The notes beneath the pieces are model-generated. The model did no database searches. It was given only the letters and a program-made list of their open reading frames with translations, and was not told the DNA's origin. DNA of 64,000 nt, from positions 87,713 to 151,712 of IMG/VR virus record IMGVR_UViG_3300035686_000002. One strand, given 5' to 3'. The position numbers and the translations under genes are program-made. Shown one piece after another: positions 3,587 to 63,490 of this stretch (position 1 is its first letter; each line of letters opens with the position of its first letter). The DNA comes from a virus. Lineage: Duplodnaviria; Caudoviricetes.

Positions 3587-3682
3587 CCACTCTGCCCCTC
3601 GCCTAGGGCGCACCCGCGCCCATCCATCTACTCCACTTGCCTCACTTCAAAGACTCACTTCACTACACCACAGGAAAATACC

Positions 3683-4267
3683 ATGCAATTACTCAACACC
3701 AAATTCAACCAAATCGCTACAGCAATCGAAGCGACTAACGCCCAGATTGCAGCCTTACAAGCCAAGCTTTCGGAACTTCAAGAACATCAACAGCAACTAC
3801 TCTCAGTCGAGCAAGCTTGCCAGTCCGCACTCGCCCAAGTTGGCACTGCACTTTCAATGCTCAACCACGTAGACCCCGCCGAAATCCCTACATTCAAGGC
3901 AGCGGTTGACGCACAATTTGGAACCGACGCGATTGGATTCTTGGAACCCGCCACACCTGCACCAGAGGAAACAGTCGAACCAATCGAACCAGAACCGACA
4001 CCACCGGAATCATCAACCACAGCAGAAATTAAGTCAGCGATTGAAGTAGAAGCGACTGTCACAGATACACCCACCACTGACGAGTTGATTGAGTCAACAC
4101 CCACACCATCGGCAAAAATTGAATTACTACTCGGTAAAATGTCTCTCGCCGACATCCGGAAGCTCGCCAAAAACAAAAAGGTAAACGCACGGGGAAACCT
4201 GCTTACTATCGCAGCGAGGTTAAAAGCAATCGTCACAGAGTCCGATATCTGGGATGCTACGACATAA
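3683..4267 (+). CDS. Coiled-coil, Pro/Thr-linker protein with C-terminal SAP/Rho-N-like domain
   Basis: N-terminal heptads, a PEPEPTP linker, then MSLADIRKLAKNKKVNARGNLLTIAARL. Confidence 0.6.
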   Translation: MQLLNTKFNQIATAIEATNAQIAALQAKLSELQEHQQQLLSVEQACQSALAQVGTALSMLNHVDPAEIPTFKAAVDAQFGTDAIGFLEPATPAPEETVEPIEPEPTPPESSTTAEIKSAIEVEATVTDTPTTDELIESTPTPSAKIELLLGKMSLADIRKLAKNKKVNARGNLLTIAARLKAIVTESDIWDATT

Positions 4268-4365
4268 CTTCTAATTCTATTGCTTCGCTGACTCTCTTAG
4301 GCGAGGCAATAGCAAGTGGTATATCAGTTCTTCCAAGCCTATAAACCTTTATTTAGGACAAAGCA

Positions 4366-7360: not shown

Positions 7361-7768
7361 TTAAAACTGAGAGCAAGCAAATCGCCAAATTGCTGCTGCT
7401 ACTGTATCCTTTGCGGGAATAGCAGGGGTTCTGTCTGCACGACTCAAGGGAATCTGTCGAGTTGGAGAACCTTGGGCATCCACGACCTCGACTCCCTGCA
7501 ATGCTAGCGTCCCTTTGAAACAGTCGGCTTGGTATCGGACGCCCCTTAGCAGTATTCCATCAGAAGAGACTGTGACAGTGCGAAAGGTGTTTTTCTTGAC
7601 ACCTGTATCGAACAATCGCATCTGAGACGCAAGATCCATGAAGATTTGGTCGCCAGTTTCGATAGTGGTTACTCTTACCCATTGCTGAGGTGCGCTCTGA
7701 GCTTGAATTGTTGCTGCGACAGCGAGGCTCAATACTGAGAGTGCGATTGTTTTGATTAATTTGTTCAT
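7361..7768 (-). CDS. Secreted/periplasmic protein (surface-adhesin-E-like)
   Basis: Signal peptide MNKLIKTIALSVLSLAVAATIQA; WVRV..IFMD..YQADC..C pattern. Confidence 0.6.
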   Translation of the reverse strand: MNKLIKTIALSVLSLAVAATIQAQSAPQQWVRVTTIETGDQIFMDLASQMRLFDTGVKKNTFRTVTVSSDGILLRGVRYQADCFKGTLALQGVEVVDAQGSPTRQIPLSRADRTPAIPAKDTVAAAIWRFACSQF

Positions 7769-7803
7769 TTTATATATTGGTTTAATACGGGATTAATTGA
7801 ATC

Positions 7804-37199: not shown

Positions 37200-38342
37200 A
37201 TGACCGTATCACCTTTATATAAAGCGAAAGAAAGAATGATGACCCCTGTAAGTATTCACACAGTCCAAAATGTTGTTTACATTGAGTGTCGAGAGCTTGG
37301 GTTTCAAAAAGAAGACTCACTTGAACACTATTTAGACAAGAAAACAAGTAAGAAGATAAAATCTCAAGTCAGAGAGATAGTTCAATTGACGAACGAAGAC
37401 TATCAGTTATTTACGATCAATCTTCTTGATTATTATGAATGGCTAAGCGACAGAGGTGGCAGAGACTGCCACTACAAGACTAAAGATGGGGAAGACTGGA
37501 CTGCGACTCTAGATAACAAGCAAGAGATGGCGCAATGGGCGAAAGAAAGCTACACAAAATGTATCTTAGTTACGAACGGTAGCGATTACATCTTGGTTGA
37601 TCCACAGGGACAAAGATACGCCCTATATGTTGGGTTCAGTAAAACAAGTTTAAGAGACATTTTAGAACTTGTACAACTTCAACCATTAAACCTTCCTGTT
37701 ATTGAACCTACAGCCAAAACTCAACCGACAATCTGGCAAAATGCCACCCCAGCAGCCGAAGTCAACGACATCATCCGCAAGCCGTTTTGCCCGATCGCTC
37801 GTGTTATCAGCAAAGAATTCTTGGCAAACGGTCGTATCTGCTTGATCGTTGATTTCCCCGGCTGTCTTGATCTTGAAAAAGAAGAATGGGTACTGCCAGC
37901 AACCGAAGTCATCGCACCCGCTACACCACCTGTACCAGCAGTCACTCGCGCACTTTCAACCTTCGCAACAGCAAACTACCCAGCCACAGCAGTCGAAATT
38001 ATCCCCGCACCTGCTGTGATCAAGAAAACGACCAACCCCCAAACCAACAGCACAGGAAGAACCATGCAAGCTATATCACAAAAGGGCTGGGATAAGTATC
38101 TCGATCGCAAAGCAGCCGAGTTTCTCGCAACTAAGCAAATCATCAAGTCGCACCTCGTCCCCGGCGACGGCGCTCAAGCTCCCGGTTTCGTGACCCTCCG
38201 ACAATGGGGCGAACAGTACGCAACACACTTCTATAACTCACAAGACGGTGGCTTTCACTACGGGCGTTATTTCTCAAAGTTTAATGATGCTGAAACTGAC
38301 TTTAGTCGCCGAGTAGCTGACTACGCACCCGCCACCAACTAG
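37200..38342 (+). CDS. Multidomain early protein with Pro/Thr/Ala linkers
   Basis: N-domain ending ILVDPQGQRYALYVG; C-domain THFYNSQDGGFHYGRYF; terminator at about 38365-38390. Confidence 0.75.
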   Translation: MTVSPLYKAKERMMTPVSIHTVQNVVYIECRELGFQKEDSLEHYLDKKTSKKIKSQVREIVQLTNEDYQLFTINLLDYYEWLSDRGGRDCHYKTKDGEDWTATLDNKQEMAQWAKESYTKCILVTNGSDYILVDPQGQRYALYVGFSKTSLRDILELVQLQPLNLPVIEPTAKTQPTIWQNATPAAEVNDIIRKPFCPIARVISKEFLANGRICLIVDFPGCLDLEKEEWVLPATEVIAPATPPVPAVTRALSTFATANYPATAVEIIPAPAVIKKTTNPQTNSTGRTMQAISQKGWDKYLDRKAAEFLATKQIIKSHLVPGDGAQAPGFVTLRQWGEQYATHFYNSQDGGFHYGRYFSKFNDAETDFSRRVADYAPATN

Positions 38343-46992: not shown

Positions 46993-48165
46993 ATGATAAA
47001 AATATCAGAAATAAGAGCGGATTTAGACTCGCTCTTGGCAAGTCAGGTGAAAAAGGCGGGTACTACAGATCCGCTGTTGATGGGCGTAATGGTGAACAGA
47101 CAGGGGGAACTCTGCACTCTAACAACGTTTGACGGCATATCGTCAACTACTATCACGGAGAGAGACTGGGGGCAGTCAATCCCGGAAGGAGGGTTTGTAC
47201 TCCCAGCAGCTTTTGCCAATCTGATCCGGACATTGGACAAAGAGGCAGAGGTAACAATTGAAAAAGTTAAAACGGGACAGGTACAGGTCAAACAAGGATC
47301 GTCAAAATGGCGGTTTCCGATGTCTCTACAGACAGAAAGCTTCTATCCGATGGGTGAGGAAATTCTCTCGAATCGGGTTGCTTGTACCTCGATTCAGTTT
47401 GAAAGCGATCTGTTGAGAGAGGCAATTCTCAACGTCTTTCCCTCGATCGGCAAAGAATACACGGCGCTTTGTTGCGCTCAGTTCATCATCAAACCAAAGG
47501 TGGGGGAATTGATAGCCATAGCAAACGACGGAAAACGTTCGACAGCTTGGAAGGCTGTAGCTGTAAACGTCAAATATCCCGATCTACCCCTCCCGGAATA
47601 TCAATTCATTTTACCGGGTACGAAACTACTAGCTCTTGCCAAATTTCTCAAGGATACCGAAAAAGTTGAAGTTCATTTTACCGATTCCCTCGCTATTTTT
47701 GAGAATGTCGAAACAAAAACCTCAGTCACAATTCGATTGTTGGACGGGAAAGAGTATCCTCAGGTTTTAAAGTTGTTTACCATCCCTTTTGTAACAGGGT
47801 ATAGTCTAGCGCCGAAAGAGTTCCTAACCTGCCTAAAACGAATCAAGATTCTTTTACCTGAGAATAAATTGGGCGCAATTAATCCTGTCGATCTAAGATT
47901 TGAGAATGACAGGGTTAAAATTACGAACAAATCTGATTTGTTCACTGAAATTTTGACTTGCAAAAATCTAGAGATTGAAGGGGTAGAAAATCCATCGGTG
48001 TTTGAGAGTAGGCTAAACTTTGAGTACATTAACGGAGCATTGTCTATCCTAACAGGGAAAGAATGCGACATGAAACTACACTCAAACATAGTTTCAGTTG
48101 CTTCGACTACATTGATGGGGTCTGTGACTCATTTTATTGCCACAGTTGCAAGGGAAGAAAACTAA
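46993..48165 (+). CDS. dnaN: DNA polymerase III beta sliding clamp homologue (divergent)
   Basis: 390 aa; AIANDGKRST (cf. ATDGHRL), RLLDGKEYP and LNFEYINGAL; own promoter TTGACA-N17-TAAACT at 46933. Confidence 0.8.
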   Translation: MIKISEIRADLDSLLASQVKKAGTTDPLLMGVMVNRQGELCTLTTFDGISSTTITERDWGQSIPEGGFVLPAAFANLIRTLDKEAEVTIEKVKTGQVQVKQGSSKWRFPMSLQTESFYPMGEEILSNRVACTSIQFESDLLREAILNVFPSIGKEYTALCCAQFIIKPKVGELIAIANDGKRSTAWKAVAVNVKYPDLPLPEYQFILPGTKLLALAKFLKDTEKVEVHFTDSLAIFENVETKTSVTIRLLDGKEYPQVLKLFTIPFVTGYSLAPKEFLTCLKRIKILLPENKLGAINPVDLRFENDRVKITNKSDLFTEILTCKNLEIEGVENPSVFESRLNFEYINGALSILTGKECDMKLHSNIVSVASTTLMGSVTHFIATVAREEN

Positions 48166-48751: not shown

Positions 48752-48812
48752 CCGCTAAATTTCTCAAGATACGTTCGGACGGGTTTTAAACTCGTCCTTT
48801 TTTTTGTCTGAA

Positions 48813-49000
48813 GCGAAACATCGTTTTGATTGTCTTTATAGATGAGTCTGTCACTCAGTTTTTTATATTCTATATACTTTTTAATTGACAAACTCATCCA
48901 TTACGTTCTCGATCCTATATACCTTCTGACTGTAGAGTTTGCTTAGGTTTTGTTTTTAGAATTTTCTCGAGGAAAATCTGACAAATGGATAGATATCAGG
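48813..49000 (+). repeat. Dispersed element, copy 10
   Basis: GCGAAAC..ATAGATGAGTCTGTCACTCA..TTGACAAACTCATCCAT..CTGTAGAGTTTG. Confidence 0.9.
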
Positions 49001-49406
49001 CAAACAGCCTGCGAACTCAAGTATAAAAAGAGTCGGTAAAACAAACAATCGCTCGCCTTTCCGCTCAACCGCCCAAGATTCGGCAAAATAAAATATATAA
49101 CGGGTTGACATCAACTGTTTAGCGTGTTATTTTGTAAAAAGTTCGTCAAAAAGAAGGAATTTGAAAGAGTCAAAAGACTTTTGATGACCCAGTAATGGGT
49201 TCTGAGAGGTGTAAAATCACAAACCAGAAAGAAGTGCTTTGATTCTGGCAAATGCCAGATAAGCGATAGAACTAAAAATTCAAGAACTATTTTTGTCAAA
49301 CACCAACATCGATTAAACACGATGCGAGAGGTACTCACAGTACAAACCGGGGCAAAAAGAACTCTTACAAGCAACCAAAATCACCAGCAGAGGCGTATGG
49401 GCTTAA

Positions 49407-49922
49407 ATGGCTAGTGCAACAAAAGAAAAGAAAACAGTTAAGCGAGGTAGAAAAAAAACAACCGAAAAACGGAAATTAGTTGACGAAATCATAGGATTGG
49501 AACCCAAAAAACGGGGTAGAAAGCCCAAAGCGGAACTAGACGTTAAACCCATCAACCGAGGGGTAAAAAAGGTCAATTTGGGACACAGAGCCGCTTTGGC
49601 TCGACAACTAAATATCTCGACTCAAACCTTATACAACAGGGAAGCAGTTTTTGACAAGTGCTTGCCCGAATATTTTTCGGGGCTTTCATACTTGCCGAGG
49701 AGGGGGGGTGCGTTGAAAGTCATTCCCGATCTGACCCCTTACCAGCAATTTTGTCATTACCAGCTTGAAGCCTTAAAACAGGGTTTGGGAGTGAAAGACT
49801 GCACTCCGACAGAGATGGTAATAAAAAACAACTTAGACCATTTTGACATCGACCTGTTCAATAGGCAGCGGCAGTTAACTGTCGATGTTGACGTTGAATC
49901 AAGCTCAATCGAAACGGCCTAA
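49407..49922 (+). CDS. AT-hook-like plus HTH DNA-binding protein
   Basis: KRGRKK and KKRGRKPK; RAALARQLNISTQTLYNRE. Confidence 0.7.
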   Translation: MASATKEKKTVKRGRKKTTEKRKLVDEIIGLEPKKRGRKPKAELDVKPINRGVKKVNLGHRAALARQLNISTQTLYNREAVFDKCLPEYFSGLSYLPRRGGALKVIPDLTPYQQFCHYQLEALKQGLGVKDCTPTEMVIKNNLDHFDIDLFNRQRQLTVDVDVESSSIETA

Positions 49923-49957
49923 TCAGATAATCAACCTAAAAAAGAGAGAGTTTTGCA

Positions 49958-50443
49958 ATGTACGAAAATTTAAAATCCCTGTCTGGGACTGAAAACGGCA
50001 GCAGCGAGCCGACAGAGCAGCGAGCAACAAGTTCAGAAACTAAGCCAAAAAGAGGGCGCAGGAAAGCCAATCCTGATACAGCTATCGCAAAAAGCGAGGG
50101 GCATAAGCTCGCAAACGAGCAAAAAATCGAAGCAGCAGAATTTGTCTCGGACTTGGAGAAGCAAGAGCAAATTCTGACGGCTGCTAGAGGCTATCAAAAA
50201 GGTCAAAATTTAGCCCAGATTGAAGACGCGGCGAGAGTTGCCGGAATTGTTGACACGTTGACAGAGCAAAGTCTGACTCGGATTGCAGCTTTGAGACTTT
50301 CTCTTCAGGATGGACTAACAAATCACGATCCGCTTGCTGTTTTGGACGAACTCGGTTTACGGAGAACGGGACAAGAAACGGCAGATTTGAGAGAAAAGAT
50401 TGCTCAGTACAAACAGGAAGATCCAACAGTTTTTTTGCTCTAG
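49958..50443 (+). CDS. Helical protein with a KRGRRK motif; possible -1 frameshift extension to 50622
   Basis: Ends GTT TTT TTG CTC TAG. Confidence 0.7.
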   Translation: MYENLKSLSGTENGSSEPTEQRATSSETKPKRGRRKANPDTAIAKSEGHKLANEQKIEAAEFVSDLEKQEQILTAARGYQKGQNLAQIEDAARVAGIVDTLTEQSLTRIAALRLSLQDGLTNHDPLAVLDELGLRRTGQETADLREKIAQYKQEDPTVFLL

Positions 50444-50749
50444 AAACGATCGCGCTAATACAAAAGGCGATCGCTCTAATCGAAAAACTGGAAACAGAAT
50501 TTAAAACTAAGGAAAGGAAAGAAACAGTGAAATTTTGGAATAAAGTTAAGGCAATTCTTAAAGCGGAATTAGACAGACATCGGGGCATAGATGCCTTCAT
50601 TATTGTCGCCGCCCCTTGGTAATGCCGATCAACTTCTTGTAAAACGCAACGCAATAATAATCGACGGGACACTCTGGACAAGCAACCCGCCGACCGTGTA
50701 AATCTTTTCTTAGCTTTCGCTGAGAAACTCATCTAAGGACAATTGTACT

Positions 50750-51472
50750 ATGGACTTTGGACGCAACAACACATCAGCGGTAATCCTCAACCCCGCAGCC
50801 GGACACAGCCCCCATATTGACGAAAAAACATCAAGCTGGGGCAACACAGAAACTGATATCCTTTCTTACTTGTCGGATGTCAACCAGCTTGAAGCTTTTG
50901 CAGACAAAGCAGCGAATGCAGAACAGCTCGCATTAGTTTTAGAGCCATTTCTAGACAATGCTCGGACGTATTTTGAAGCGATGACAAAGCTTGCCGACGG
51001 TCAAGCAACCTGGACTGAGCTTAGAAAGCAGTTTGGTTCCAAGGTTGCCAGCGCGATCGCAAAAATTCGCAAACTCAACGCTGAATTTGGCTCAGAGATG
51101 GAGTTATTGGATGCCCGTGACCGATCGACAATGCTCAAGGTTGAAAACAACAGGCAGCAAAAATTAGCCGAAATCGCTCATGAGTTGACTCAAGACTTGC
51201 AGGCTCAGCTCTGGCAGCATGAAAACAAAATGGCTGCAATTAACAGCAAAGGCGAAGTCGCCCAAAAGCGCCAATCAATTCAACAAGGGCTTCAAACTAA
51301 GCGCCAAGAACTGCTGATGCGAGCACGCAGCGGTACAAACCAAGGTGTGCAAGACAAAGTTCCAGTTTTGGTCAGTGGAATCTCTCAGTCCGGCATTTCT
51401 AGCGGTGTATCAGCAACCGGAAAAGTTAGGGATTTTAGCTGGTTTTCAAATTTAATCAACTTCAACCGCTAA
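50750..51472 (+). CDS. Coiled-coil protein
   Basis: AAGGA RBS; long heptad region. Confidence 0.75.
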   Translation: MDFGRNNTSAVILNPAAGHSPHIDEKTSSWGNTETDILSYLSDVNQLEAFADKAANAEQLALVLEPFLDNARTYFEAMTKLADGQATWTELRKQFGSKVASAIAKIRKLNAEFGSEMELLDARDRSTMLKVENNRQQKLAEIAHELTQDLQAQLWQHENKMAAINSKGEVAQKRQSIQQGLQTKRQELLMRARSGTNQGVQDKVPVLVSGISQSGISSGVSATGKVRDFSWFSNLINFNR

Positions 51473-51487
51473 GGAGTATGGGGGCAA

Positions 51488-52024
51488 ATGCACGAATTTA
51501 TAGGTTCTAGTCCCCTCTCATTTTTGGGAGAGGGATTGCAAACACAACAGCAACATCAACAGCGACAATATACTGCGCCAGAGATCGAGCCATTGACAGA
51601 ATCGAACGCAGAGCGTAATTACCGGGATGCTGCAAATCTCTGTGAAGTCGTCGCGCCCGCAGCGTTAGGGTCGGCGGTAGTATTTGCTTTTCACTCAATG
51701 CAGGTTGCGGGCGGATCGATCGCCGCAATCGGGATTTACCAAATTTATCTAGCAGCTAAACTGACGGGGCAATCAAGCGGACGCTGGACTTCTGCAATTG
51801 TTGGTGTTGGTGTCACTGGATCTATGGTTTTTGCTTTTAGCGAAGCAATAGGAGAATCACAGCAAGCATCTGACGTCAAATTTCGCATAGAAACCGCAAT
51901 TAAAGAGTTACAGATAACCCAAAAATTTGATGCTGGATATTTTGACTATTTGCCGTCAATCGCGCTTGTAATCATCGTTGTTTGCCTACTTCTTAAATTC
52001 AAAGGAGTGAAACAATGCCGTTGA
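51488..52024 (+). CDS. Multi-pass membrane protein
   Basis: Three to four hydrophobic segments; overlaps the ATPase start. Confidence 0.75.
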   Translation: MHEFIGSSPLSFLGEGLQTQQQHQQRQYTAPEIEPLTESNAERNYRDAANLCEVVAPAALGSAVVFAFHSMQVAGGSIAAIGIYQIYLAAKLTGQSSGRWTSAIVGVGVTGSMVFAFSEAIGESQQASDVKFRIETAIKELQITQKFDAGYFDYLPSIALVIIVVCLLLKFKGVKQCR

Positions 52025-53790
52025 CGACAAGACACGCTCAACTGTTGAAGTCCAACCGGACGCTAATGATTTGGCTTGAAGGGTTCCCGCTCACTGCTAA
52101 ATTATCCGTTGTTGGGTTGGCGCTGATGATCGGAGTTTACAGCGGCATCAATGCGCTCAAAGGTACAACCAGTGACATGGTGCAAGCCTGCATCCGCAAT
52201 AAGCAATCGTTGCAATGTGCTGACAAAGCAGGCAGGCCCTACATCATGACCGAATACCACGCAGAGCAGTGGAAGGCAAACGGCATTCCGGGTGAGGTGG
52301 TATTTAATAAAACTATCCCCGCAACTAATTCGCACAAAGCGCTGTGGATGGTTTTAGTTGCGGGTAGTTTTGGAGTTGCGGGAGTCGTTCTGAGAAGCTT
52401 GCAAAACTCTGAGCGCCAACTAGCTACCTATGAAGCTATTGCAGAGAAACGAGATTCAGCCAAGGCACAAATCAGCGCCCGCGCAGAACTGATAGAAGAC
52501 TATCGCAATGTGGCGATCGCAGAAGTTTATCTACAAGCGGACTTAGAAGTGGCAGCGAATGATCGGGCGGTAGTTCTCAAGCAGTGCGAATTGTTAGGAG
52601 AAGCTGATATTAAGATTGCTCAGCTAGAAGCTGAAGAGGCTTTATTCGAGGCAGAGACTGCTGGATTGTCTGACGAGAAGAAGCAGGAATATCTAGACTT
52701 TTTGCGAAATCAAAAAACTCCATTTGAGTTTCAATTGACGGGAACGCAAACATTTAACAGCATCAATAACCCTAGTGACAAAATTGAATCGCAATCAACA
52801 GACGGGGCTAAAATCCCCAAGCTCATCTGGTATCCATCTGTTCTCGTTTATGGCGCTCCCGGTTCCGGCAAAACCTTCTTCTCTGAGCAAGAAGTCGGCA
52901 AGCGTCTGGCTGCGGGTCATCGGGTTGTGGTGCTTGATCCACACGCCGCTTACGGCGCTTGGCAAGGGTGCGAGGTCATTGGTGGCGGGATGGATTACCC
53001 AGCTATTGATGCAAAGCTTGCCTGGTTTTCCGATGAAGTAGCCAAGCGTTATAAGGTTGTGCAAAGCACACCTAACCCGAAGTTTCAACCATTGACTTTT
53101 GTGTGTGACGAGTTCACGCGGTGGGGTGGAAAATGCCCAAACTCAACAGATTTTTTTGAGCAACTGGTAACTGATATTCGCAAGGTTGAGATGTTCGGCT
53201 TAATCATCTCGCATACCCGTACTTTAGCAGGATTAGCCAATGCCAAAGGATTTGCATCTCTGCGGGATGAAGCCTTGCTAGAGGTGGAAATATTGGGAAA
53301 TAAAGATGAAGAAACAGGCAGGGCTACACCCCGTTTTGAGGCAAAAATAAAGCTACCGGGACAACCTTTATCCGATCGCACCTTGGTCAAACTGACAAAG
53401 CACTCGACACCGAATAAACCAGAACCAACCTTACAAAATACTTCGGCAGAATCTACAACTGACTATCTCGACCGCGTTTTTAAGCTTGAGTTCGATTTAG
53501 GCAAACCTGAAACCGAATCCGAAACCGTTTCAGACGAATTTCAAAACGTGAAACAACGGCACAGCAGCAATTCTAGCGATTCTGACGCCGTTTATTTCAC
53601 AGCCCTGAAACTTGATCGAGCAAGAGCAATCGAGTTAATCCTGAAGCTAAAAAATGAAATGAAACACACGCAGACAGAGATTATCTGGATGCTGTGGAAC
53701 GCTCGACCGGGCAAAACTAAAGCCTACGAAACAGCGGTTTCAGAGTATAAAGAATTACTCAAAAAGATTGTGGGAGAAGGCAGTGAATGA
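52015..53790 (+). CDS. Membrane-anchored P-loop ATPase (FtsK/HerA/VirB4-VirD4 superfamily-like)
   Basis: Two TM helices, a coiled coil, Walker A GAPGSGKT, VVLDPH, Walker B FVCDEF, and a small C-terminal helical (wHTH-like) domain. Confidence 0.8.
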   Translation: MPLTTRHAQLLKSNRTLMIWLEGFPLTAKLSVVGLALMIGVYSGINALKGTTSDMVQACIRNKQSLQCADKAGRPYIMTEYHAEQWKANGIPGEVVFNKTIPATNSHKALWMVLVAGSFGVAGVVLRSLQNSERQLATYEAIAEKRDSAKAQISARAELIEDYRNVAIAEVYLQADLEVAANDRAVVLKQCELLGEADIKIAQLEAEEALFEAETAGLSDEKKQEYLDFLRNQKTPFEFQLTGTQTFNSINNPSDKIESQSTDGAKIPKLIWYPSVLVYGAPGSGKTFFSEQEVGKRLAAGHRVVVLDPHAAYGAWQGCEVIGGGMDYPAIDAKLAWFSDEVAKRYKVVQSTPNPKFQPLTFVCDEFTRWGGKCPNSTDFFEQLVTDIRKVEMFGLIISHTRTLAGLANAKGFASLRDEALLEVEILGNKDEETGRATPRFEAKIKLPGQPLSDRTLVKLTKHSTPNKPEPTLQNTSAESTTDYLDRVFKLEFDLGKPETESETVSDEFQNVKQRHSSNSSDSDAVYFTALKLDRARAIELILKLKNEMKHTQTEIIWMLWNARPGKTKAYETAVSEYKELLKKIVGEGSE

Positions 53791-53985: not shown

Positions 53986-54210
53986 ATGTCAAATAACAAC
54001 TATCGCGTCATTGACACAGATCCAAATTCTGAGCCTGTTCTTACTATCAGTCAAATTGAGCACGCCGGACAATCTTACGTCAAATACGAGATTACTGGAT
54101 GGGGAGGTAGTGCAGTACCTGTTGAAGGAGGTGAGGATTTTTCTAAATCCTTGGGTAGTTCAATCAAATACGTTAAAACTTTTTCTGAAAAAGGAGGTGA
54201 TTTAGGGTGA
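53986..54210 (+). CDS. Hypothetical protein
   Basis: GGAG RBS; 74 aa. Confidence 0.5.
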   Translation: MSNNNYRVIDTDPNSEPVLTISQIEHAGQSYVKYEITGWGGSAVPVEGGEDFSKSLGSSIKYVKTFSEKGGDLG

Positions 54211-54353: not shown

Positions 54354-54731
54354 ATGCAACTAACAGATGTTTCTATTTCGACATTCACTTTTGAGGTTAA
54401 GTTTTCTGAAGATATGGAGGAATACCTAATGGAATCCTTTACGGATTTTTTAGAAAATCGAAACCTAATATCTAAAAGTGTCCTGAATAAAACTTTGGGA
54501 ATTTGGGTTGATTCTGTTCCATATCATGAATTTTCTGAATTGTTTGATATTTTCTGGAAACAAATGCGTGACGAAATGCCTGGAGGGAAAGCTGTTGAAA
54601 TAATTGCGGGCATTGGCATACAAATATTTAGTATATTCCAACGAAAGAAACCTCCAGAACGTTCTCTAGTTCGTGAAACAGTAAAAACGAGAGTTGCGTT
54701 AAAACTTTTAGATTTGGTCGTCCAAGTTTGA
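54354..54731 (+). CDS. Hypothetical protein
   Basis: 125-aa ORF. Confidence 0.6.
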   Translation: MQLTDVSISTFTFEVKFSEDMEEYLMESFTDFLENRNLISKSVLNKTLGIWVDSVPYHEFSELFDIFWKQMRDEMPGGKAVEIIAGIGIQIFSIFQRKKPPERSLVRETVKTRVALKLLDLVVQV

Positions 54732-54800: not shown

Positions 54801-54829
54801 CAAAGACCTCGGAGCCACCGAGGTCTTTT
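54801..54829. terminator. Bidirectional terminator hairpin
   Basis: AAAGACCTCGG-AGCCA-CCGAGGTCTTT between convergent genes. Confidence 0.75.
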
Positions 54830-54840
54830 GTTGTATAGTC

Positions 54841-56361
54841 TTAGCGCTTACTGTCTTGTCGATAGGCGTCCTTCTGCTCCAGACATTTCTGAATCTCTAA
54901 AGCAAGATACCCTGCATGATCGCCTCGGATAGCCGGGTTGGTTTGGAATATCTCTCGAATCAACTTAAGAGCGTCGCTGCTGCGATACTCACGGGCTGCT
55001 ATCCCTTGCGGGTATTCTTGCGCGACATAGCACTGTGCATTCTGCACATCCCAACAGATCAAAAAATTACCAACATTGTCAAAATAGCTTTGTCTCAAAT
55101 TGCGTTTAGAGACAAGAGCATCAGCAGCGTCGAACGAATGTTCGTAGATATGCGCTGAAAACGAGTTAGTGACTAAAGCCCCAAGTTCTAAATCTTCCAG
55201 CCCCTCATCAATCAGAGTTTCGCACACCTGTTTTTGCAGGTGTCTCAACCCCATCGCGTTTGCAACCCACGCGCTGTACATATCGTTAGACCGGAACGTA
55301 GCGATGAGAACTAATTTGTCGTTGGAGATGCGGAACCATAAATGGTTAAGGCAAGGACTGCCACCGTGCTGATGATCGGAGGATTTGTCTGATCGAATAC
55401 CTCCGGCATCCCACAAATTAACGACAGCCGAACAAGCATCAGGTTCTTTGACGAGTTTGTCAATCACCTCAACGATTTGGTCATGCCCAAAATATTCTCG
55501 CATCCGAGAGCCGTAGGTGTACTTAACGCTGGATTCTTGTCCCTTTAAGCCCTCGCACATCTGGGGAAGATAGGATTTGATGTATTCGGCATCGACAGGC
55601 AGATACGGTTCAAATCTAAAGCCGTCGGGTTCGTTGTTGATAATAACGGTTAAGTTTGCAAGTTCTTGCCAATATCCGCCGTAACCAGTCGTAAGAATCC
55701 GCCCTGTAGTTCTGATGCGGTAGAGAATTTCGGGAAAGGCTTCGGCGATCGTGTCTGCCTCAATTCGGTGTCCGATGTACGCCCCCGGCAGTCGGTTCGA
55801 GTCTATCGACTGAATCGGGAAAACCTGACGGTTTCCGGCTTCATACTTAGAAATGGTCGGTATATATTCTGGCACGTCCGACAATTTAGCAGGCAACCCT
55901 GCGAGATATTCCGGCAGTGTAGAAACCTCAATCCGCGCTCTGAGAGCTTCTAAGGCTTCAAGAGGTATTTCTTTTTCAATTTCACCGCGTCCCCTGATCG
56001 TCCTCCAACACGGGCGCTCTGCCGAACTCATCGCCTCTTCTACCCCATTCTCAAAAAATGCCCTGAGCGATGCCATAGATCCGGCGTTCAAATCGTATGA
56101 GGTCGGCATCGTGTGAACAACCTGCGTTATTTGCGGATTGTATAGCAGGTTACGGATCAAAATGGACAAGCCACCCGTCGGGTTGTATAACTGCCCTAAT
56201 GCAGCATAAGTAGCCGATGGGAGCTTTTTGGCGATTGATGCGGCATCACTCCAACCTGTGACTACTATCACCGGGCTATACCGATCACCATAGATCAATT
56301 GTTCCGATTTGTAAAGCGCCTCATACTGGTAGAACTCGCTTGCTGTTTCTTGCTCTTGCAT
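54841..56361 (-). CDS. thyA: Thymidylate synthase with MtrA-like N-terminal and DUF4346-like C-terminal domains
   Basis: YTYGSR, SPCL, FRSNDMYSAWVAN and SAHIY; N-terminal GQLY..GLSILIRNLLYNPQI; C-terminal DNVGNFLI..HAGYLALE. Start moved to the ATG at 56361. Confidence 0.82.
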   Translation of the reverse strand: MQEQETASEFYQYEALYKSEQLIYGDRYSPVIVVTGWSDAASIAKKLPSATYAALGQLYNPTGGLSILIRNLLYNPQITQVVHTMPTSYDLNAGSMASLRAFFENGVEEAMSSAERPCWRTIRGRGEIEKEIPLEALEALRARIEVSTLPEYLAGLPAKLSDVPEYIPTISKYEAGNRQVFPIQSIDSNRLPGAYIGHRIEADTIAEAFPEILYRIRTTGRILTTGYGGYWQELANLTVIINNEPDGFRFEPYLPVDAEYIKSYLPQMCEGLKGQESSVKYTYGSRMREYFGHDQIVEVIDKLVKEPDACSAVVNLWDAGGIRSDKSSDHQHGGSPCLNHLWFRISNDKLVLIATFRSNDMYSAWVANAMGLRHLQKQVCETLIDEGLEDLELGALVTNSFSAHIYEHSFDAADALVSKRNLRQSYFDNVGNFLICWDVQNAQCYVAQEYPQGIAAREYRSSDALKLIREIFQTNPAIRGDHAGYLALEIQKCLEQKDAYRQDSKR

Positions 56362-56577
56362 CTTATTTGTTTTTTGTAAAAACTCTTTATATAAACTATC
56401 ACAACAAATTCTTAATGTAAATAAGCACCTAAGCTTAAGATGAAGAGGTAAAAGAGAAAATCTATCAGGATAACAGGTGTAACTGTCGCTCTTGATGTAG
56501 AAAGTTAAATAAAAATGGAGTAGAATCAATTGTTTTGACTCTACTCCATTTTGTTAAACTGGCGTTAGGCTGAAAGC

Positions 56578-62161: not shown

Positions 62162-63490
62162 CCTAAAGGCGTAAGGATTCTTTCTTCACAGGGATTCCAA
62201 CGAATTTACCCTCCAAAAGCATCTTGACCGTATGCCCTACGGCTGCAAGTCCTCTAATAAGAACTACTTGGGCTGCTGCAATATCTCTATCGGTTGTGTA
62301 CCCACAGCTTGAACACGAATGTACGCGCTCCGACAATTCTTTTGTGCCTGTTTCTACGCCACAGCTAGGGCAAATCTGACTTGTTTTGTGAGCGCTTACT
62401 TTTTGGAAATACACCCCATGCTTAAAACAATCTTGCTCCAATATCGTAAAGAACTGACCCCAAGAGGCATCTAAGCAATGTTTTCCCAGCATCGCCTTAG
62501 CTAAGCCAACGAGATTCAAGTCCTCAACAAAAATCATCCCCGCATCTTTACAGAGCTGGTGAGCTAACTTCCAATGCCAATCTTTACGGCAGTTAGCGAT
62601 GTACTCATGCAGTTTGGCAACTTTCTTCTGAGCCTTCTTCCAGTTATGGGAGCCTAGTTTTTTCCGACTGACACGTTGTTGCAGCAATTTAAGCTTGCGT
62701 TCTGCATCAAGGAAAAACTTTTGGCGTTTGACTAGAAGACCATTGGAGGTTGCGATGAAATTAGTTAGTCCGACATCAATTCCTACGCCTTCGCCGTGCG
62801 GCATAACTGACGGTACTGAAACATCCCATTGCAGGGTTAGCATAACGTACCAGCCACTAGCTCTGCGAACTATTCTCGCCTGTTTAATTGTTGCGCCATC
62901 TGGGATAGGACGCGATTGGTGAAACCTTACTAACCCAATTTTGGGTAGTTTCAGTGTTCCATTTTTGACAGGATTGACACCCAGTTGTGGGAACACAAAA
63001 GACCGCATTGCTCCTACTTTTTTAAAGCGAGGAAATCCGTGTTTCTGTTCCCACATATTGACAAATGCTTTTTCAAGCCGTCTCAGCGTTTGCTGCAAGA
63101 CGTGTACTTGAACAGTCCCTAAAGCGGGTATGCTTGCCCTTGCTGTTGTTAAGTTTTTACACTGACTGGCATAAGTTGGTCGTTTCGTTTCGGCTGGGAT
63201 GATGAACTCGGAACGGATAGAACAAGCGTTAACCTGACAACTACGAGACTGAAACCAATGCTTGCGCTCTGCCAATGCGTAGTTGTAAACACGGCGACAT
63301 TGTTCCAACCAGTCTTCAAAGATAACTGTCTGTGCTGTCGTTGGTTTCAGTTTGAACTCGTAGGTTAAGTTAAACACTTGTTTTGTCCTCCTAACCTTAA
63401 TTATAGGGCTGCGACCAAAGGTTAAAGCGATTATTCACGATTCTTAATTAAAGTCGCCCTGGAAGGGCGGGGCTTGTACCCACGTTTTTG
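62148..63490 (-). mobile_element. IS200/IS605-family element carrying tnpB only (IS1341-like)
   Basis: Left end CAAAAACGTGGGTACAAGCCCCGCCCTTCCAGGGCGAC hairpin follows GTGAC; right end GAATCCTTACGCCTTTAGGTTAAGGAGTGTCAA; no tnpA. Confidence 0.85.
62163..63377 (-). CDS. tnpB: RNA-guided endonuclease TnpB
   Basis: N-terminal HTH (YEFKLKPT..CRRVYNYAL); RuvC motifs GIDVG / VEDL / DRD; Zn ribbon CPSC..CSSC. Confidence 0.95.
   Translation of the reverse strand: MFNLTYEFKLKPTTAQTVIFEDWLEQCRRVYNYALAERKHWFQSRSCQVNACSIRSEFIIPAETKRPTYASQCKNLTTARASIPALGTVQVHVLQQTLRRLEKAFVNMWEQKHGFPRFKKVGAMRSFVFPQLGVNPVKNGTLKLPKIGLVRFHQSRPIPDGATIKQARIVRRASGWYVMLTLQWDVSVPSVMPHGEGVGIDVGLTNFIATSNGLLVKRQKFFLDAERKLKLLQQRVSRKKLGSHNWKKAQKKVAKLHEYIANCRKDWHWKLAHQLCKDAGMIFVEDLNLVGLAKAMLGKHCLDASWGQFFTILEQDCFKHGVYFQKVSAHKTSQICPSCGVETGTKELSERVHSCSSCGYTTDRDIAAAQVVLIRGLAAVGHTVKMLLEGKFVGIPVKKESLRL

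Follow-up and report, generated by a model that had tools for sequence, protein, structure and literature searches.

The conserved trio

The question raised by the operon at 49407-53790 of the DNA stretch studied here is why a tailed phage encodes a membrane-anchored ATPase whose nearest relatives lie on plasmid-like contigs, and what this ATPase does. The stretch, called the window, comprises 64,000 nucleotides, namely positions 87,713 to 151,712 of the virus record IMGVR_UViG_3300035686_000002 (Duplodnaviria; Caudoviricetes), and forms the last 64 kb, or right arm, of a linear IMG/VR record of 151,712 bp with a CheckV completeness of 93%. In the left arm, PHROGs identifies a large terminase, a portal, a major head protein, a head protease, and a tape-measure protein, and hence the record is that of a tailed phage with its own packaging motor. 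An earlier prediction made from the letters of the window (the original prediction) read the operon as five genes forming a DNA-spreading system analogous to TraB and the Spd proteins of Streptomyces plasmids. All five open reading frames (ORFs) are found as described, co-oriented on the + strand; a 31-aa micro-ORF had been overlooked, so that the operon features six genes, followed by two small downstream ORFs. The last three genes encode a 240-aa helical protein, a 178-aa membrane protein, and the 591-aa ATPase. This trio is read here, tentatively and with somewhat less than an even chance of being right, as a membrane translocase that transfers or segregates the DNA of its element in filaments of cyanobacteria.

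As judged by sequence comparison, the conserved core of the operon is these last three genes only. The proposed five-gene system thus stands as a module for the trio, whereas the gene of the AT-hook/helix–turn–helix (HTH) protein (171 aa) and that of the KRGRRK protein (161 aa) occur only in this phage lineage and have no counterpart in Microcoleus-type plasmid-like loci. All loci examined have, ahead of the ATPase gene, genes for a helical protein (~200-250 aa) and a transmembrane (TM) protein (~155-190 aa). The synteny of the trio is kept in >40 loci, with the genes closely packed or overlapping, and the DNA similarity between the phage and plasmid-like contigs runs from 50698-50750 to ~53760, which is the trio. 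Toward two Microcoleus-type loci, the identity amounts to 64-69% for the 240-aa protein, 58-68% for the 178-aa protein, and 68-77% for the 591-aa protein; the nearest relatives of the trio, on plasmid-like contigs, show 74% DNA identity over its whole length and 81% protein identity for the ATPase. The 240-aa protein has a mean column identity of 72% over 20 homologues and is 53% identical to the copies on pCC7120epsilon and pNPUN05, the ATPase being 33% identical to that of pCC7120epsilon. A lookup of the 240-aa protein in the ESM Atlas returned only unannotated cyanobacterial clusters, all <0.9.

The partner proteins occur in three types, which strictly co-vary with the type of the ATPase N terminus; the Walker A motif lies at residue 279-297 (22 loci), 201-211 (10 loci), or 283-288 (6 loci), depending on the type. 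The core of the ATPase crosses these types, the window core being ~79% DNA-identical to loci of the other partner type. This co-variation of the partners with the N-terminal type, while the core recombines, is indirect evidence that both partners may bind the N-terminal membrane-and-stalk domain of the ATPase.

Architecture and fold of the ATPase

The ATPase features two TM helices at its N terminus, joined by a short periplasmic loop, a topology like that of type IV coupling proteins (T4CPs), followed by a long stalk, a RecA-like core, and three C-terminal helices (Table 1). T4CPs, TcpA, and TraB are built likewise, with two TM helices, a small outside loop, and an ATPase core. The AlphaFold model has a pLDDT of 64 overall and ~85 in the core. 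In this model, the core of ~200 residues comes directly after an unstructured linker, and the C-terminal helices, which a low-complexity linker separates from the core, carry no β-wing.

The fold of the core (aa 262-466) was searched with Foldseek and, in addition, with VIA-align, an aligner independent of Foldseek. The best match is TcpA of pCW3 with a Z of 16.3 and an rmsd of 3.1 Å over 185 residues (Foldseek E 8.6e-7), followed by EccC (Z 14.7), FtsK (14.4), EssC, DndH-C, HerA, TrwB (13.2), and VirB4 (12.8). The top 15 rows of VIA-align are all members of the FtsK-HerA superfamily (Z 12.5-16.3), Foldseek gives the same set, and generic RecA-like proteins appear only from Z ~12. These closest structures, together with Walker A, Walker B, and a conserved arginine, make the ATPase a member of this superfamily. 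In an alignment of relatives, Walker B is followed by the motif R-K-x-x-M ... S-H-T-R-T, which we take to be laid out like the arginine and the T-Q-R-P region of FtsK. With the top rows less than 2 Z units apart, the sub-family is not settled by the model-based comparison.

Profiles of the named families do not settle it either. The ATPase gives no match to the FtsK/SpoIIIE profile (PF01580) and no Pfam or NCBIfam match to the VirD4/TraG/TrwB profiles (T4SS-DNA_transf, TraG-D_C, and TrwB_AAD_bind), and its core has no large helical insertion. The NCBIfam rows are P-loop-only matches to VirB4/TraC models, far under the cut-offs. For HerA, the DUF87 score is 18.8 bits against a cut-off of 23.2, and the N terminus consists of TM helices and a long helix, with no HAS-barrel; EccC and EssC have three tandem ATPase domains as opposed to the single P-loop core found here. 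Among 50 diverse relatives of the ATPase, DUF87 is matched in 40, AAA_10 in 19, and FtsK_SpoIIIE in three, the latter weakly. The family counts 1840 clusters at 50% identity (E<=0.001), and all named members seen are cyanobacterial. The comparison of FtsK, VirD4, and HerA for which the original prediction had called thus groups the core structurally with the FtsK-HerA membrane translocases, not with non-translocase families, while the profiles of named families fail. A role as phage terminase was rejected: the phage has a separate TerL (genome positions 64039-65502; phrog_2, E 2.9e-26), and the ATPase is membrane-anchored and gives only phrog_2666 with an E of 0.0099.

An exchangeable core on a fixed scaffold

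In close phage relatives, the N-terminal 260 residues of the ATPase are ~90% and the C-terminal domain is ~75% identical to the window protein. In these same relatives (e.g., L074:12628-14586, as against window 52015-53790), the P-loop core is a different one, called core B, whose Walker A motif is APTRCGKT. A profile–profile comparison of core B with the window core shows no homology beyond the P-loop; by language-model features, the nearest clusters of core B are FtsK_SpoIIIE/DUF87 (0.93-0.94), which is a lead, not a test. The C-terminal domain, in turn, comes in several alternative types across the family. As these alignments read, the core behaves as a recombination cassette that is swapped independently of the ends within a fixed scaffold. 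What sets the family apart most is this combination of a fixed membrane scaffold with exchangeable motors and putative exchangeable recognition ends, for which there is no firm explanation.

A further arrangement of the core is found in two samples, where a 562-aa protein (L079:2537-4225) on a plasmid-like backbone has an actin-like ALP_N N terminus joined to the ATPase core. This protein may stem from a deletion that fused the first and last operon genes, or it may be a true fusion.

Plasmids and hosts carrying the module

By tblastn against PLSDB, the ATPase is found on 49 complete plasmids and the 240-aa protein on 25, and all hosts are filamentous. The 49 plasmids come from Nostoc (29), Tolypothrix (7), Aulosira (4), Microchaete (4), Oscillatoria (2), Calothrix (1), Scytonema (1), and Kovacikia (1). 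A phylum-wide genome search gives a match in 27 of 401 genomes. The genome scan yields 57 loci, often with more than one in a genome and located on short contigs, the names of some of which give a high read coverage; the named hosts are filamentous genera except for one metagenome-assembled genome labeled 'Chroococcales'. ATPase homologues are plentiful in Microcoleus, Tychonema, Nostoc, and relatives. The distribution over filamentous and unicellular taxa, a further check asked for in the original prediction, does not refute that reading, and neither does the grouping of the ATPase: the named hosts in both sets are cyanobacteria, and nearly all are filamentous.

MOB-suite classifies 33 of the 49 plasmids as mobilizable, four as conjugative, and 12 as non-mobilizable, so that a relaxase is typed in 37. 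In a survey of 424 cyanobacterial plasmids by another method, ~6% were conjugative and ~6% mobilizable (PMC8600333). On these sequence-based assignments, the module appears strongly linked with plasmids that have a relaxase and no secretion system, in a comparison that mixes methods and taxa.

On pCC7120epsilon and pNPUN05, the trio forms the end of a ParM/StbA-led operon that is divergent from a ParG-like gene and the DUF5906 replication gene. The order on pCC7120epsilon is MobV relaxase, DUF5906 replication gene, and ParG-like gene, and then, divergently, the module operon with a 350-aa gene, four small genes, and the genes of the 238-aa, 179-aa, and 588-aa (ATPase) proteins. A response regulator and a pentapeptide protein follow the ATPase, and ParA/ParB are encoded elsewhere on the plasmid. 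Plasmid pNPUN05 features the same operon, with its first gene annotated as ParM/StbA, a MOBP relaxase and MobC 3 kb off, and a separate ParA. Directly behind the ATPase of Nostoc plasmids (L070 and L024), a response regulator composed of a receiver and a LuxR HTH and a pentapeptide-repeat protein of ~700 aa recur, both absent from the phage. A Pfam scan of the small partner proteins of the plasmid operons gave no match. The surroundings of the module in Microcoleus/Oscillatoria elements comprise tyrosine recombinases, RHH proteins, Uma2, and replication genes of the DUF3854 or DnaG-DUF3987 kind. The trio is also kept where the ParM gene is absent, namely in the phage and in many elements of Microcoleus.

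The operon in phages

For the two genes at the head of the phage operon, 21 homologues of the 171-aa protein and 10 of the 161-aa protein were found, and several of the contigs bearing them equal in length contigs with ATPase homologues. Three related phage contigs of 28.7, 111, and 30.6 kb, plus one more that is listed, have one common gene order: dnaN, a gene of ~180 aa, an optional TnpB, the 171-aa and 161-aa homologues, the micro-ORF, the trio, and a convergent thymidylate synthase. The flanks are 70-80% identical in DNA between these contigs and the window, and protein identity goes down to 45-70%. From this comparison of contigs, the six-gene operon is seen as a stable feature of the phage lineage and no one-off capture, which argues for a relaxase-independent use of the module.

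Profile searches of the whole 151.7-kb record gave no match for integrase, ParA, ALP_N, relaxase (two families, PF03432 and PF01076), or FtsK_SpoIIIE (PF01580), and the sole match to AAA_10 (PF12846) is the window ATPase itself. The observation in the original prediction that the window holds no relaxase or type IV secretion system (T4SS) genes thus extends, within these families, to the entire record, and the phage locus, for lack of an ALP_N match in the record, is no member of the ParMRC systems. A search of the record for StbA_N was empty as well, but its controls were silent too, and it says little. No homologue of the MobV of pCC7120epsilon was found in the phage record.

The host of the phage is probably a filamentous cyanobacterium; this is indicated indirectly, by the nearest module homologues in the filamentous genus Microcoleus and by the biocrust sample. 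A biocrust metagenome is the only sequencing run with nearly all of the region and may be the source sample.

A 712-aa protein of isolated Nodularia phages (genomes of 139-147 kb) combines two hydrophobic segments with a stalk, a P-loop of the core-B type, and a helical C terminus. It is the unannotated gp129 of Nodularia phage vB_NpeS-2AV2 (L077:6149-8287) and is also present in the vB_NspS-kac65/68 phages; the structural matches in BFVD include the kac65v161 protein. A tblastn search of INPHARED with the window ATPase, the Nostoc-type ATPase, and the 240-aa protein gave no match, and a scan of IMG/VR by exact short patterns from the ATPase alignment, a weak method, found no relative.

Proposed function and rival explanations

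The nearest folds, the T4CP/TraB-like build, the position in plasmid backbones beside genes for replication, partition, and relaxases, and the C-terminal helical domain make DNA, in our reading, the most likely substrate of the module. Gene order, topology, fold class, conservation, co-variation of the parts, and host range come directly from the analysis; for the mechanism proposed here, we infer that the ATPase forms a ring and, with its partners, a complex, that its substrate is DNA, and in which direction and to what end transport would proceed. The 591-aa ATPase would be held by its two TM anchors, with an FtsK/TcpA-like P-loop ring on a stalk of ~100 residues beneath the cytoplasmic membrane, and its N-terminal membrane-and-stalk domain would dock the protein with 3-4 TM segments and the 240-aa helical protein. 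The substrate would be chosen by the variable C-terminal helical domain or by accessory DNA-binding proteins, which would be the 171-aa HTH and 161-aa basic proteins in the phage lineage and the ParM-led genes or the relaxosome on plasmids. ATP hydrolysis would then drive the DNA of the element through or to the membrane or septum. The outcome would be either transfer into the neighboring cell or septal pumping or positioning, such that both daughters keep the element. In the phage, where the searches detected neither an integrase nor partition genes, the module might serve to keep or spread a non-integrated genome along the filament.

Several observations weigh against this translocase reading. 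The protein-export ATPases EccC and EssC score nearly as high as TcpA and FtsK, and therefore the fold does not specify DNA as the substrate. In the model, the core of ~200 residues is without the FtsK α-domain and the C-terminal domain is wingless, its DNA binding being only a prediction. Sequence profiles give only Walker-A-level matches to solved proteins (PDB; a single sequence and two profiles), and matches to the FtsK_SpoIIIE, T4CP, and VirB4 families stay at that level as well. For the 240-aa protein, the model shows helices only, and with a pLDDT of 44 it is too uncertain to be used for fold assignment. The Nodularia phage ATPase stands alone, without genes for the 240-aa and TM partners. 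The host-range signal, finally, is confounded by phylogeny and search reach.

Most carrier plasmids have relaxases, and the module stands behind a ParM-like gene; therefore, roles as coupling protein or in segregation are live rivals. In the former, the ATPase would be a dedicated T4CP with two helpers that passes relaxase-bound single-stranded DNA to a T4SS encoded elsewhere, e.g., the MPF-C of large Nostoc plasmids, with the phage copy hitch-hiking on or hijacking it. TcpA as top fold match, the match to TrwB, and the topology with two N-terminal TM helices agree with such a role, as do the name 'type IV secretory system conjugative DNA transfer family protein' given by the NCBI pipeline to several homologues, the 33 of 49 plasmids with a relaxase and without mating-pair-formation (MPF) genes, and, on pNPUN05, the relaxase and MobC at a distance of 3 kb; pCC7120alpha is known to carry an MPF-C system (PMC8600333). 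This role is nevertheless judged unlikely, given that neither of the two relaxase families searched has a match in the phage record and yet the phage lineage keeps the module, that 12 of the 49 plasmids are typed as non-mobilizable, that there is neither a VirD4/TraG or TrwB family match nor an all-α insertion in the ~200-residue core, and that two strictly co-varying membrane-associated partners exceed the needs of a T4CP. The second of these roles, a stability device in which the membrane ATPase and, on plasmids, a ParM-like filament tether or pump copies at the septum, and which in the phage would partition an extrachromosomal prophage, is also improbable. It would account for the ParM/StbA-family or ALP_N gene at the start of the plasmid operon, which adjoins ParG-like and replication genes, for the joined ALP_N-ATPase core protein of two samples, and for the failure to detect an integrase, ParA, or ParM in the phage; the septum is the site of action of FtsK and SpoIIIE. 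However, ParA or ParA/ParB is also found on the same plasmids, the trio occurs without a ParM gene in the phage and in many elements of Microcoleus, the phage gives no sign of being temperate, and we know of no partition system with a TM-anchored FtsK-like ATPase.

Transport of another kind, or conflict between elements, would make the ATPase a T7SS-like protein exporter, an entry-exclusion factor, or part of an abortive or defense function. EccC and EssC domains lie less than 2 Z units below the top match, the plasmid operons hold several proteins of 58-95 aa without a family match, and close relatives differ by cassette-like swaps of the ATPase core and the C-terminal domain, a pattern often met in conflict systems. 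With a single ATPase domain where EccC/EssC have three, no T7SS family, WXG100 included, in the profile scans, no credible match in PADLOC, and a 240-aa partner that is unusually conserved, unlike proteins of an arms race, this explanation is highly doubtful. It is most improbable that the trio is a passenger from a Microcoleus plasmid without a role in phage life: its nearest relatives do lie on plasmid-like contigs (the 74% DNA and 81% ATPase protein identity given above), with which the phage has other accessory genes in common, but the six-gene operon is kept at the same position and with intact frames in several diverged phage contigs, including the one of 111 kb. A more far-reaching form of the translocase reading, in which the trio is a relaxase-independent, TraB-like pump that moves double-stranded phage or plasmid DNA from cell to cell through the septa of the filament, is quite unlikely. 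If it were true, the phage genome could colonize a whole filament without particles, and 'mycelial' DNA spreading would have been invented a second time, independently of the actinomycetes. The analogy to TraB and Spd drawn in the original prediction is itself partly supported, by architecture, fold, and host range, and fits as a description of how the system may work, whereas the module belongs first of all to plasmid backbones, and most carrier plasmids have relaxases.

Returning to the translocase that transfers or segregates element DNA, the module represents a large uncharacterized family in the backbones of small plasmids (pCC7120epsilon, delta, and pNPUN05) of Nostoc PCC 7120 and N. punctiforme, the principal genetic models among filamentous cyanobacteria; at present, these plasmids are typed as no more than 'mobilizable' or as immobile. 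Should the module move DNA, the travel or persistence of these plasmids would be explained, and there would be an entry to the question of whether DNA can pass between cells of a filament. Tailed phages do not usually have a conserved copy of this kind, in which motor cores are interchangeable and the scaffold is fixed, and it points to a lifestyle feature tied to a multicellular host. Whatever the function, the three genes merit a family name and an experimental test.

Layout and setting of the operon

The coordinates of the operon and of the ATPase domains are collected in Table 1. The operon lies in a region of replication and nucleotide metabolism: RusA, a diverged dnaN, and a 204-aa gene precede it, and the convergent thymidylate synthase follows. 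The HTH of the 171-aa protein (aa 49-79) has an E of 0.002, which is under the Pfam cut-off, and a homologue in a related phage gives the same weak match. The 31-aa ORF is likely a micro-protein gene of the operon, as its protein sequence is conserved in L074 and L075, two related phage contigs in which the start codon is ATG. A minus-strand ORF at 50184-50732 was discarded as spurious because of its overlap with conserved + strand genes.

Table 1. Features of the operon, its boundaries, and the domains of the ATPase (window coordinates).
Feature	Coordinates	Strand	Remarks
Intrinsic-terminator-like hairpin	48777..48797	+	Left operon boundary; ends upstream dnaN/204-aa unit; consensus match only
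Copy of dispersed ~190-bp repeat	48811..49017	+	~390 bp upstream of operon; not operon-specific
Promoter-like site TTGACA-17-TATTTT, extended TG	49105..49133	+	Consensus match only
171-aa basic protein, 33 K+R	49407..49922	+	Weak CI-repressor/Fis-type HTH; phage-lineage-specific
161-aa protein, KPKRGRRK patch	49958..50443	+	Without family match; phage-lineage-specific
31-aa micro-ORF, GTG start, hydrophobic C terminus ending AAPW	50527..50622	+	Inside 306-bp "gap"
240-aa all-helical protein ("c2")	50750..51472	+	Most conserved trio member
178-aa integral membrane protein, 3-4 hydrophobic/TM segments	51488..52024	+	Stop overlaps ATPase start by 10 nt
591-aa membrane-anchored P-loop ATPase	52015..53790	+	Database gene call begins 17 codons later
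ATPase: TM1, ~55-aa extracytoplasmic loop with two conserved Cys, TM2 (aa 23-129)	52081..52401	+	Hydropathy and model; TM at aa 23-48 and 108-129
ATPase: cytoplasmic stalk helix, ~100 residues (aa 130-233)	52402..52713	+	With TM part, N-terminal domain co-varying with partners
ATPase: RecA-like FtsK-HerA core (aa 262-466)	52798..53412	+	Walker A GAPGSGKT, Walker B CDEFT, invariant R389-K390, H400/T403
ATPase: three-helix C-terminal domain (aa 533-585; helices aa 535-583)	53611..53769	+	pLDDT ~80; candidate substrate-recognition domain
74-aa ORF	53986..54210	+	Also directly behind ATPase in one plasmid-like locus (L013)
125-aa ORF	54354..54731	+	Last gene before terminator; without family match
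Bidirectional terminator-like hairpin, 11 bp, 6 GC	54802..54828	.	Right boundary, common to convergent thymidylate-synthase gene; consensus match only

The original prediction had noticed a copy of a repeat before the operon and had proposed it as a possible loading site. The copy is present, and it belongs to a nested-palindrome element of ~190 bp that occurs in roughly 25-30 copies genome-wide, with the window copies at 1883-60110 and several left-arm copies in reverse orientation. Related phage contigs carry copies at equivalent intergenic sites. Since the element precedes many units throughout the genome, nothing ties the repeat to the ATPase, and the plasmid loci with the trio have no copy of it. 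The role as a loading site was rejected for this lack of specificity. In the relatives L075 and L076, a TnpB lies between the dnaN unit and the operon, the interval that holds the repeat copy in the window; genes of the TnpB/IS605 OrfB type are found at window 62163-63377 (-) and at L075:8599-9675.

The dnaN upstream, at window 46993-48165, encodes a diverged phage sliding clamp, which matches the N-domain of Pfam DNA_pol3_beta with 26.2 bits (cut-off 24.4) and phrog_947 with an E of 2e-20 and whose TIGR00663 score is far under the cut-off. The convergent gene at 54841-56529 (-) encodes a 562-aa protein made of a long N-terminal extension, a thymidylate-synthase domain, and a C-terminal PterinBD-DUF4346 domain, a fusion kept in related phages at ~506 aa. 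In addition, three further stretches of the window (3645-4268, 7361-7771, and 37730-38040) show 66-78% DNA identity to genes on trio-bearing Microcoleus plasmid-like contigs, so that accessory genes are evidently passed between the phage and Microcoleus plasmid-like elements.

Comparison with known systems

Literature searches found no paper on the module; it is compared here with systems that resemble it in part. With FtsK/SpoIIIE, the window ATPase has in common the RecA-like β-domain fold (Z 14.4) and the membrane anchor. It differs in having two TM helices as opposed to four, in having neither an α-domain nor a winged-helix γ in the model, and in being encoded, with its module, by mobile elements only.

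The VirD4/TrwB coupling proteins feature two N-terminal TM helices and then a P-loop domain, as the window ATPase does; TrwB reaches a Z of 13.2, and the automatic naming of some homologues by NCBI points to the coupling-protein group. In contrast to them, the window ATPase has no T4SS-DNA_transf, TraG-D_C, or TrwB_AAD_bind match and no all-α insertion in its core.

TcpA of the Clostridium perfringens plasmid pCW3 (PDB 6o1x) is the best match to the core fold. TcpA has two N-terminal TM helices, and both proteins are plasmid-borne. The identity between them is only 17%, and the window ATPase is without a Pfam FtsK_SpoIIIE match. TcpA lacks the stalk of ~100 residues, the C-terminal helical domain, and the two co-varying partners, whereas no Tcp-type T4SS genes (VirB4/TcpF, TcpH, and TcpC) lie near the module, whose hosts are cyanobacteria and which is also found on a phage.

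The proteins of the Nodularia phages (gp129 and its kac65/68 counterparts) have no partner genes, and their core is not detectably homologous to the window core. They are of the same build, belong to phages of filamentous hosts, and are homologous to core B (E 2e-7).

TraB is an FtsK-like ATPase that transfers double-stranded DNA alone and recognizes the clt repeat via a C-terminal winged HTH. Unlike TraB, the window ATPase has, in the model, a core of ~200 residues without the FtsK α-domain; no clt-like site was found, and most plasmids that carry the module have relaxases, whereas the Streptomyces system needs none. By description, TraB with its Spd proteins and the module are alike in the single membrane-bound FtsK-like ATPase with a small C-terminal helical domain, the small membrane partners, the tight operon, and the multicellular filamentous hosts.

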